From Octopus vulgaris (taxonomy: Eukaryota), in contig OX597814.1 in NCBI GenBank assembly GCA_951406725.2, forward strand, positions 100,440,001-100,504,000: a DNA stretch of 64,000 bases, in the 5' to 3' direction. The translations under genes were made by a program, and so were the position numbers. Below the pieces are notes generated by a model, which was given only the letters and a program-made list of their open reading frames with translations, did no database searches and had not been told where the DNA came from. Below are positions 1-2,122 of the stretch, in pieces. Every line of letters begins with the position of its first letter. Positions within the stretch are counted from its first letter, which is position 1.

Positions 1-170
1 TACGTGCCCTTAACATTAGCGGTTCGGCAAAAGAGAACAATAGAATAAGTACCACGCTTTGCAAAAATGTAATAAGTACTAATGTCGATAAGCTCGTTTA
101 AAATTCTTCAATGTTGTTTCCCAGCAGAGGCGCAGTCTAATGAATAAAACATAGAAGAAATAAAAGAAAT
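1..170 (+). mobile_element. 3' part of SINE family A (truncated by the window start)
   Basis: 'ttagcggttcggcaaaagagaacaatagaataagtac' matches the 3' half of the fuller copies at 26704-27100 and 29948-30321. Confidence 0.75.
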
Positions 171-337
171 CAAGAAGAGAGAAACTGAAGAGTGAAAACA
201 TCACACTGCTAACACACGATAAGACAAAATATTGACTTGTAAACCTCTAATATACTTGGAAACACATTACGGTTCCGAAACGTAATACTGCGGCGTTGAC
301 AGCAATTAGATAATGAGTAATTCTACTGAATTTATAT

Positions 338-715
338 TTTATTCTATTACTTCTTTCAGTCATTTGACCGGCCATGCTGCTGCACCGCCCCGAAGGACTC
401 CAGGATGTTTTTTCTTAAAAAAGCCTAGTATTTATTCTATCAATCACTTTTGCGGAACCGCTAAGTTACGGGGACGGAAACACACCAACACCGGTTTTCA
501 AGTGGTTATGGGGCACAAACACGAATACACACACACACATGCATCTATATATACGACAAGCTTATTTCAGTTTCCGTTCACCAACTCCACTCACAAGACT
601 GTGTTAAACCTGAGCTATAGAAGAAGGCACTAACCGATGGTGCCTCGCTGTGAAAATAAACCTGGAACCATGTTGTTGGGAAGCCAGCTTCTCACCATAC
701 AGCCACGCCTGTGCC
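338..715 (-). mobile_element. SINE family A, near full length
   Basis: Reverse complement of ggcgcagg-gtggctgtgtggtaagaagc...gcggttcggcaaaag...gcatggccgcagtcaaatgactgaaac, seen in many copies across the window. Confidence 0.85.
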
Positions 716-1058
716 TATAATTCTTTATTATTTGACAAATTTATTGAAATACAAACATTATCATAATGAGATTGTATGACAGTGAAAGGGATACAATGTC
801 AAACACCAGTTTATGCAGCTGTTTATCCTTTCATACGTCTAAACACGCATGAATATTCTGTCTTTTGAAATTGTAGCAAATCCGCTCTAATAACAAATCG
901 GGTCTAAACCGAGAAACAAAGAACAAGTCACCTTCATTGGAATTTATGAGTATGCATGGGATGGGGCATTTGAATTATAACGTCGGATGTAATCAATTGA
1001 ACCACACGCGTATTTATCGTTATGGTAAAATCTGGCGTGTGATTGAGTGGATTTCATC

Positions 1059-1152
1059 CAGATAGTCTTGGCTGACGAGCTACAAATGGATTATTGTAAG
1101 TAATATTACATTTAATTCATTAATAGCGAAACAATTGTCCCAAAATAATCTG
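1059..1152 (+). ncRNA. Type I hammerhead ribozyme, copy 1 (predicted cleavage after GUC, C1139)
   Basis: Stem I CAGATAGTCTTGG/CCAAAATAATCTG; core CTGACGA 1072-1078; stem II GCTA...TAGC; GAAA 1128-1131; stem III ACAA/TTGT; GTC triplet. Confidence 0.9.
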
Positions 1153-1591
1153 TATTTTTGTTATTTTTTATTTGCCCTGTCCGTGTGAGCTAACAGTCGT
1201 ACTGGCTTTCATGGGAAACATGTATTTTCGTGGTTGAAACCTTTTGGATTAACTGGTGCTAGAGTGATCAATATAGTGACCACTCTCTTATATTTATTTT
1301 GTGAAAATATTATAATATGCTATAAAATATTATAATAATCCAGGTTTCTCGTAGCACTAGGCCACTTGGTGTGGAATAAATATACTATTAAATTAGTATC
1401 TAATTCTCTCACCCTTATTAATTAATTATAATTATGCTGCATTTATTTCTAAATGCTGTATTTGTTTTCAGTGAGAGTTTGGCGCGCTGTTAGTTGGGGC
1501 ATTTGAATTATAACGTCGGATGTAATCAATTGAACCACACGCGTATTTATCGTTATGGTAAAATCTGGCGTGTGATTGAGTGGATTTCATC

Positions 1592-1685
1592 CAGATAGTC
1601 TTGGCTGACGAGCTACAAATGGATTATTGTAAGTAATATTACATTTAATTCATTAATAGCGAAACAATTGTCCCAAAATAATCTG
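1592..1685 (+). ncRNA. Type I hammerhead ribozyme, copy 2 (predicted cleavage after C1672)
   Basis: Identical to copy 1, offset +533. Confidence 0.9.
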
Positions 1686-2122
1686 TATTTTTGTTATTTT
1701 TTATTTGCCCTGTCCGTGTGAGCTAACAGTCGTACTGGCTTTCATGGGAAACATGTATTTTCGTGGTTGAAACCTTTTGGATTAACTGGTGCTAGAGTGA
1801 TCAATATAGTGACCACTCTCTTATATTTATTTTGTGAAAATATTATAATATGCTATAAAATATTATAATAATCCAGGTTTCTCGTAGCACTAGGCCACTT
1901 GGTGTGGAATAAATATACTATTAAATTAGTATCTAATTCTCTCACCCTTATTAATTAATTATAATTATGCTGCATTTATTTCTAAATGCTGTATTTGTTT
2001 TCAGTGAGAGTTTGGCGCGCTGTTGGTTGGGGCATTTGAATTATAACGTCGGATGTAATCAATTGAACCACACGCGTATTTATCGTTATGGTAAAATCTG
2101 GCGTGTGATTAGTGATTTCATC

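Follow-up and report, generated by a model that had tools for sequence, protein, structure and literature searches.

A type I hammerhead ribozyme with a long, covarying stem II in a probably PLE-mobilised retrozyme of Octopus vulgaris

Non-LTR retrozymes are non-coding, low-GC tandem elements that carry one type I hammerhead per unit and share their genomes with PLEs, from which they have already been proposed to derive as non-autonomous elements (PMC7229834; bioRxiv 2026.07.22.740005). In metazoan hammerheads, a helix III of 1 to 2 bp with a palindromic loop is usual, and the idea that the transition between monomer and dimer regulates cleavage has been put forward for them (Cervera and De la Pena 2014, PMC4209133). 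The axolotl hammerhead HHR_Amex1, with a single base pair and a palindromic tetraloop, reaches 6% cleavage within 1 h in monomeric form, and its dimers cleave much better (PMC7229834). The canonical spacing is 6 bp for helix I and 4 bp for helix II (PMC4209133), and the canonical tertiary contact pairs the 5' U of loop 1 with the 3' A of loop 2 (PMC2632901). Minimal PLE hammerheads, in contrast, have a short helix I, an ill-defined loop 1 and no tertiary contacts (PMC4209133). Among PLEs, the Hydra clade (Craig et al. 2021, PMC8557442) inserts into (TA)n and leaves an inverted, 5'-truncated partner and a tail of 30 to 40 nt. Its published families are mostly under 3 kb, their hammerhead stem II measures 3 to 7 bp, and many of the listed motifs have a U-U at the base of stem II; among the tabulated motifs, long loop-2 regions, of 29 to 35 nt, are found only in two of Selaginella PLE-X, and several PLE motifs read as loopless palindromes in the supplement (PMC8557442).

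The window analyzed here, a stretch of 64,000 nucleotides, belongs to a microsatellite-rich assembly of 2.8 Gb. Repeat and locus comparison revealed on its + strand an array of 2.9 head-to-tail units of 533 bp (positions 962 to 2489). In unit numbering, where q is the window position minus 1489, the array is 5'-truncated at q6 and ends at a long 3' end, q474, and the target at its 3' junction is a (TA)n microsatellite (2486 to 2531, no strand assigned). At least two consecutive units contain a complete type I hammerhead. The GC content is 0.35 over window positions 1 to 2000, no stop-free frame of at least 150 aa is listed within 962 to 2489, and no LTR, PBS or PPT was seen by eye. The family is dispersed over many contigs at 99% identity. 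A 33-mer from the hammerhead had 2,016 exact genomic matches against 0 for the control, and in a DNA search the 40 candidates scored out of 996 gave 243 matches, mostly 99% identical. Older subfamilies, with 1,598 and 447 pattern matches, are 70 to 97% identical to the 533-bp unit.

On these features, the 533-bp element is best classed as a non-LTR retrozyme, in a genome that, as in the described cases, also contains PLEs. Its unit is larger than the 150 to 450 bp of the 2020 paper (PMC7229834) and lies within the 51 to 972 bp of the preprint of Li et al. (bioRxiv 2026.07.22.740005); its 49-nt stem II is a difference from the described retrozymes. The element is not an autonomous PLE, having no RT and GIY-YIG ORF flanked by pLTRs. 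A reading of the locus from its letters only (the sequence-only reading) had stated that the long stem II departs from minimal PLE hammerheads; for a non-coding tandem retrozyme this is the wrong class of comparison, and the octopus family keeps the canonical spacing and loop nucleotides that minimal PLE hammerheads lack. For the 533-nt circle, a high degree of pairing and a very stable fold are predicted (z = -6.6, 60 shuffles), with hammerhead helices I and II still formed. Literature searches directed at octopus and at the Hydra clade yielded no account of the 533-bp family, and similar motifs may stand in paper supplements. Elsewhere in the window, three tandem 186-bp units were observed at 14467 to 15022, which resemble a common SINE-type repeat.

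The first hammerhead copy of the array is intact and spans positions 1059 to 1152 of the + strand, as delimited by sequence, fold and covariation. It presents the core elements CUGANGA, GAAA and UH in type I order: the catalytic core CUGACGA (CTGACGA in the DNA) at 1072 to 1078, GAAA at 1128 to 1131, the stem III segment CAAUUG at 1132 to 1137 and the cleavage site UC at 1138 to 1139, with cleavage predicted 3' of C1139, a cut that falls at q183/184 of the unit. As the selection patterns demanded CTGA.GA, the invariance of the core among copies is not independent evidence. All helices named in the sequence-only reading were found at their positions. The strands of helix I, read from the sequence, lie at 1059 to 1071 and 1140 to 1152, and their 13 positions form 11 pairs, including one G-U, along with a C-A and an A-A mismatch. 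Stem I had been described as 13 bp with two mismatches; both strands are indeed present, but covariation divides them into 6 bp, an internal loop and a further 2 to 3 bp. Within the 3' strand, alignment and covariation put six helix positions ahead of U1146, the candidate for U1 of loop 1. The segment 1059 to 1152 folds with z = -4.7, and 0 of 200 shuffles were equally stable. An Rfam scan of the motif gave no hammerhead match, either at the gathering threshold or at E ≤ 10, which is probably due to the long stem II. The second copy (1592 to 1685, + strand), established by repeat comparison and fold, is intact, identical to the first and its predicted dimer partner. The third (2123 to 2213, + strand) lacks 3 nt at the junction of helix I and the core according to the unit alignment; either this copy is inactive, as is likely, or its deletion is an assembly error. 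Copies 1 and 2 are thus the only intact hammerheads of the window array.

The extended stem II comprises 49 nt (1079 to 1127, + strand) and was analyzed by sequence, fold, alignment and covariation. From the core outward, it consists of a basal 4-bp helix, GCTA/TAGC (1079 to 1082 and 1124 to 1127), a 2x2 internal loop, CA/AA (C1083 and A1084 opposite A1122 and A1123), a 9-bp helix with one G-U, AATGGATTA/TAATTCATT (1085 to 1093 and 1113 to 1121), a 5-bp helix, TGTAA/TTACA (1095 to 1099 and 1106 to 1110), and the hexaloop GTAATA, GUAAUA in the RNA (1100 to 1105). Alone, this stem folds with z = -5.1, a stability reached by 0 of 200 shuffles. To the window copy we aligned 35 of the 50 distinct listed copies; the 15 rows left out (internal deletions, truncations and near-duplicates) make the resulting 36-copy alignment favourable to structure. 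Pairing held in 91.2% of 935 pair cells and changes on both sides were seen in 15 of 26 pairs, a count that overstates independent events since the rows are related. Neither the pairing nor the covariation score was reached by any of 500 shuffles, and control structures slid along the alignment paired in 34 to 41% only. The extended stem II has accordingly passed the covariation check that the sequence-only reading had proposed for it.

The signal is strongest in helix I, where all 6 of 6 pairs covary, and in basal stem II, whose three inner pairs covary in 10 to 17 rows each. RNAalifold, unaided, recovered helix I, the basal and middle parts of stem II and the apical helix. By one measure, the occurrence of further pair types, the alignment did not stand out from shuffles (225 of 500). 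Changes in distal stem II are mostly one-sided and of the G-U wobble type, and conserved sequence could explain part of the signal there. The register of middle stem II aligns poorly, with pair 45-65 unpaired in 15 of the 36 copies, and at the helix base pair 10.1-11.1 is non-Watson-Crick in 23 of 36, 17 of which were read by eye as U-U. The apical hexaloop is conserved as GUAAUA, GUAAAA or GUAUAA without having been imposed by the search. As a separate observation, the apex (GTRAGT) resembles a 5' splice site, and TTTTCAG at about 1471 is similar to an acceptor; the contigs of 4 of the 24 listed sequencing runs contained no skipping joint, so a role of the apex as splice donor is unsupported.

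The sequence-only reading had held that such a long stem II leaves the contact between loops 1 and 2 unexplained. This objection is weakened by the 2x2 internal loop, which lies 4 bp from the core and ends in A1123, a candidate for the canonical 3' A of loop 2. In 38 distinct copies, chosen independently of the downstream pattern, the loop-1 U at +7 and the A closing the internal loop are each present in 38 of 38, both at canonical spacing. There is a precedent in the CChMVd(-) hammerhead, whose extended helix II has an internal loop as loop 2 and which likewise has the loop-1 5' U and loop-2 3' A (Dufour et al., PMC2632901). Its loop 1, however, is apical and its internal loop 2 of the 2:6 type, whereas in the octopus type I motif both loops would be internal (3x3 and 2x2). 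We infer that a long stem II need not cost the hammerhead its tertiary contact, as an internal loop 2 may dock on loop 1. The octopus motif agrees with newt satellite 2 and axolotl HHR_Amex1 in its spacing, with 6 bp in helix I and 4 bp in basal helix II, and many older octopus copies resemble Amex2 in having a basal U-U in helix II. Loop 2 is apical in newt and axolotl, whereas in octopus the 2x2 internal loop takes its place and a hairpin of about 37 nt is added. Our literature search yielded no account of a hammerhead in which a long stem II is combined with an internal loop, a negative of little weight, and we regard this outline as a structural variant with partial precedent.

The sequence-only reading had also called stem III a loopless palindrome and atypical. 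The palindrome CAATTG is present, but in the monomer it is not loopless: stem III consists of the core A15.1-U16.1 pair and one C-G pair closed by an AAUU tetraloop. Nor is it atypical, given that one C-G pair with a palindromic tetraloop is the published architecture of newt satellite 2 and HHR_Amex1. Between two copies, CAAUUG can form a 6-bp stem III. That hammerheads with a short palindromic stem III cleave as dimers, as the same reading stated, is an already published model (PMC4209133, PMC7229834); dimer cleavage of the octopus hammerhead would be the published default, plausible and without novelty.

Constrained folds of a two-unit RNA are consistent with dimer pairing. The double hammerhead reached -178.9 kcal/mol and two single hammerheads -170.2 kcal/mol, so that the double form was favoured by 8.7 kcal/mol. 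In the same model, the pairing probability of stem III was 0.39 between units and 0.01 within a unit, that of basal stem II was only about 0.4, and the unconstrained minimum (-185.5 kcal/mol) was a third, inactive fold with neither hammerhead form. Within the lineage of the 533-bp element, CAATTG was imposed by the search patterns, and its invariance there is no evidence. We therefore considered other families with loop 3 left free. This pattern had 3,625 matches, against 29 for the control, and in a hand count 96 of the 100 matches listed were self-complementary, representing few independent events. Among these 100, loop 3 was AATT in 42, GATC in 30, GATT in 22 and ATAT and GCGT in 1 each; GATT, which wobble pairing tolerates, is thus common, whereas AATC, which it does not, is rare (2). 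The maintenance of self-complementarity in other families provides genomic support for pairing between copies.

These data bear on a different account, in which the monomer cleaves well because the retained contact and the long stem II stabilise it, so that the palindrome is incidental and the tandem arrangement no switch. The candidate contact nucleotides, conserved in every copy, would suit it, as would newt and salamander monomers that can cleave with helix I extensions that contain internal loops (PMC6155905). HHR_Amex1, however, has the same stem III and full contacts and still cleaves at 6% per hour (PMC7229834), the self-complementarity is kept elsewhere by compensatory and wobble changes, and pairing of stem III within a unit is hardly predicted. 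We consider this account improbable.

Long stems II are widespread in this genome. The pattern CTGANGA-N28-58-GAAACAATTGT had 4,020 genomic matches against 22 for its reversed control, spread over several unrelated families. One of these led to PLEs with intact ORFs of 970 to 1,091 aa. In the ORF of locus L131 we read DKT, a CxCX5C linker, a C-terminal EN, CxxC and CxH; together with the (TA)n target these are Hydra-clade features, and by their motifs the intact ORFs appear to be of Hydra type. A Pfam search with a Hydra-type ORF gave no match. The terminal repeats of these PLEs contain hammerheads with a stem II of roughly 55 to 60 nt and CAATTG, CGATCG or CGATTG in stem III, and the elements show a two-end pattern at +35 and +155 nt from the cut. 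Young and intact PLEs of Hydra type occupy loci L126 to L145 (for example, L131:3496-6450); their unit, at about 4.6 kb, exceeds the size of the published Hydra families, and their tail measures about 120 nt. Other, unrelated hammerhead families in which a long stem II goes with stem III CAATTG were observed at L095, L096, L097 and L098. Another family (L130:8571-8755, L136:7381, L141:1343) has a long stem II, CACGTG in stem III and ends at about +65 and +220; it sits beside or inside Hydra insertions and is possibly a second non-autonomous family.

The search for the PLE partner of the array element covered 70 loci in two groups, namely, 40 loci of one Hydra-type group (L106 to L145) and 30 loci of a decayed GIY-YIG family (L176 to L205), and the exact partner was not found among them. 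A tblastn search with the Hydra-type ORF gave no match in the window or the array loci. Homology to the unit in the 70 loci was confined to AT-rich matches of 44 to 47 nt around the cut site, and the Hydra copies scored about 1 SD above shuffles against the 3'-flank profile, which we did not count as homology. The decayed GIY-YIG family (Pfam PF01541; L094:5107-5625 and L176 to L205) is abundant, and no convincing hammerhead was found within 1.5 kb of it. With the Hydra clade as described (PMC8557442), the octopus family shares the (TA)n target, the inverted 5'-truncated partner and the tail, but its unit is without an ORF and without clear sequence homology, its stem II is longer, and its tail is of 100 to 130 nt.

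The insertion footprint was established with 29 loci (the window plus 19 long and 9 short stretches), which were taken from the top hits and so favour long or inverted arrays. In 21 of them the array has two head-to-head arms. In all 20 two-armed loci in which both ends are visible, one arm ends at q341 to q346 and the other at q472 to q476; measured from the cut, the 3' ends of young copies lie at +160 and +288, and those of older subfamilies at about +155 to 160 and +250 to 265. In copy 2 of the window, a hairpin AGAGTG...CACTCT is directly followed by the short 3' end, q343/344 (1794 to 1833, + strand, from locus and fold data), and the tail of about 130 nt extends from there (q344) to the long 3' end, q474 (1834 to 1963, + strand). 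The hairpin is a candidate for the first internal RT start site and for an RT-recognition element; as read by eye in subfamilies about 30% diverged (L102 to L105), the hairpin preceding the short 3' end appears to be kept with compensatory changes. Array ends nearly always adjoin (TA)n. At L047, both array ends lie in a non-(TA)n site with a 14-bp target duplication.

The arms are 5'-truncated with no clustering of their ends at the cut site, which holds 2 of 47 ends against 1.9 expected (the 47 ends were read by hand, a few short or ambiguous ones being omitted), and arrays pass through this site as many as about 11 times. Since the copies read through the cut site and do not begin there, the template was not a linear cleaved monomer. 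Across 106 units, those of one arm differed on average by 0.78 SNV, those of opposite arms by 1.15 and those of different loci by 2.94, and some variants private to a locus are fixed in all units of both arms (for example, C246T in L038, A497T in L047 and T506G in L040). This homogeneity, along with the private variants, fits repeated copying of one circular monomer. The footprint as a whole fits internal priming and repeated copying of one template, which was likely circular. It matches PLEs in the inverted partner and tail (bioRxiv 2021.04.23.441226), in the microsatellite target and in the use of internal start sites, two of which were shown in vitro for a PLE of Anolis (PMC11167929). A paired two-end, head-to-head footprint is not described in the relevant sections of the retrozyme papers. 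At L039:6341-7767, one arm has many internal deletions, even through the hammerhead, and the opposite arm is nearly intact, possibly owing to an assembly error or to repair at insertion.

The arrays could alternatively be an ordinary satellite whose hammerhead is a relic and which arose by DNA-level amplification of an old terminal repeat of a PLE; in favour of this are bioRxiv 2026.07.22.740005, which discusses how satellites may be born from pLTRs by unequal crossover, and the damage to window copy 3. Such an origin is strongly disfavoured and very improbable in view of the fixed pairs of 3' ends, the (TA)n junctions, the random 5' truncation, the dispersal at 99% identity, the target duplication at L047 and the covariation.

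The element might instead be mobilised by a PLE from an uncleaved multimeric transcript, with a hammerhead that is slow or helped by protein and with circles dispensable. The RT of the Anolis PLE PAc starts internally on unprocessed RNA, hammerhead mutants of this PLE insert normally, and its hammerhead cleavage needed protein (PMC11167929); moreover, cleavage in vitro was absent in 8 of 9 Xenopus retrozyme dimers (bioRxiv 2026.07.22.740005). In the octopus arrays, unit variants recur with period 3 in L035 and period 2 in L034, which suggests multimeric templates or later local duplication and would fit an uncleaved multimer. Against this stand the locus-private variants fixed in all units of both arms, which indicate a one-unit bottleneck, and the helix covariation over subfamilies about 30% diverged, which shows long selection on the ribozyme fold. 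We judge an uncleaved template to be rather unlikely.

Hints of expression came from four sequencing runs, which were only guessed to be RNA, no run listed being on record as such. In run X1, the unit appeared as one cyclic contig of 563 nt, a form that tandem DNA can also give. In run X12, two low-depth contigs showed clustered A>G changes on the + strand over window positions 1490 to 2022, a pattern that resembles ADAR hyper-editing. None of 373 genomic alignments, overlapping loci included, had G at two or more of the 11 X12 sites. These changes hint at edited sense-strand transcripts.

Considering the ribozyme fold, the stem III pairing and the insertion footprint, the reading that we favour, and hold to be likely, is a type I hammerhead in a young non-LTR retrozyme that is likely cleaved as a double hammerhead, likely forms circles and is likely reinserted by a PLE, probably of the Hydra clade. 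The array would be transcribed from the + strand. Two CAAUUG segments would then pair into a 6-bp stem III with the strands of helix I swapped, each core cutting the site of its neighbour, and a lone or circular monomer would cut slowly. Lying 4 bp from the core, the 2x2 internal loop would take the place of the apical loop 2 and dock on the internal loop of helix I through A1123 and U1146, and the rest of stem II would be an added hairpin. The PLE protein would nick (TA)n, reverse transcription would start from q344 and q474, and the RT would circle the template several times, giving rise to homogeneous, 5'-truncated, head-to-head arrays. More tentatively, and with less confidence than in its alternatives taken together, we propose a new hammerhead lineage in which both contact loops are internal and the added stem II hairpin, with its conserved hexaloop, may be a protein or RT handle, the lineage belonging to an active retrozyme whose insertions record two-site priming by a PLE-type enzyme on a circle.

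The dimer switch was known; what is new is a covariation-backed variant whose contact apparently involves two internal loops, an outline common to several families of the octopus genome. Until now, the case for PLE mobilisation of animal retrozymes has been built on co-occurrence and on pLTR similarity (PMC7229834, bioRxiv 2026.07.22.740005), and the paired ends, random 5' truncation and within-locus homogeneity observed here match the internal priming of a PLE in vitro (PMC11167929). If the more tentative reading is true, these insertions would be direct genomic evidence for rolling-circle retrotransposition of animal ribozyme circles, and the intact Hydra ORFs in the same genome make the hypothesis of a circular PLE template directly testable. 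The insertion footprint is thus the most useful addition, as through it PLE-driven rolling-circle copying becomes testable.
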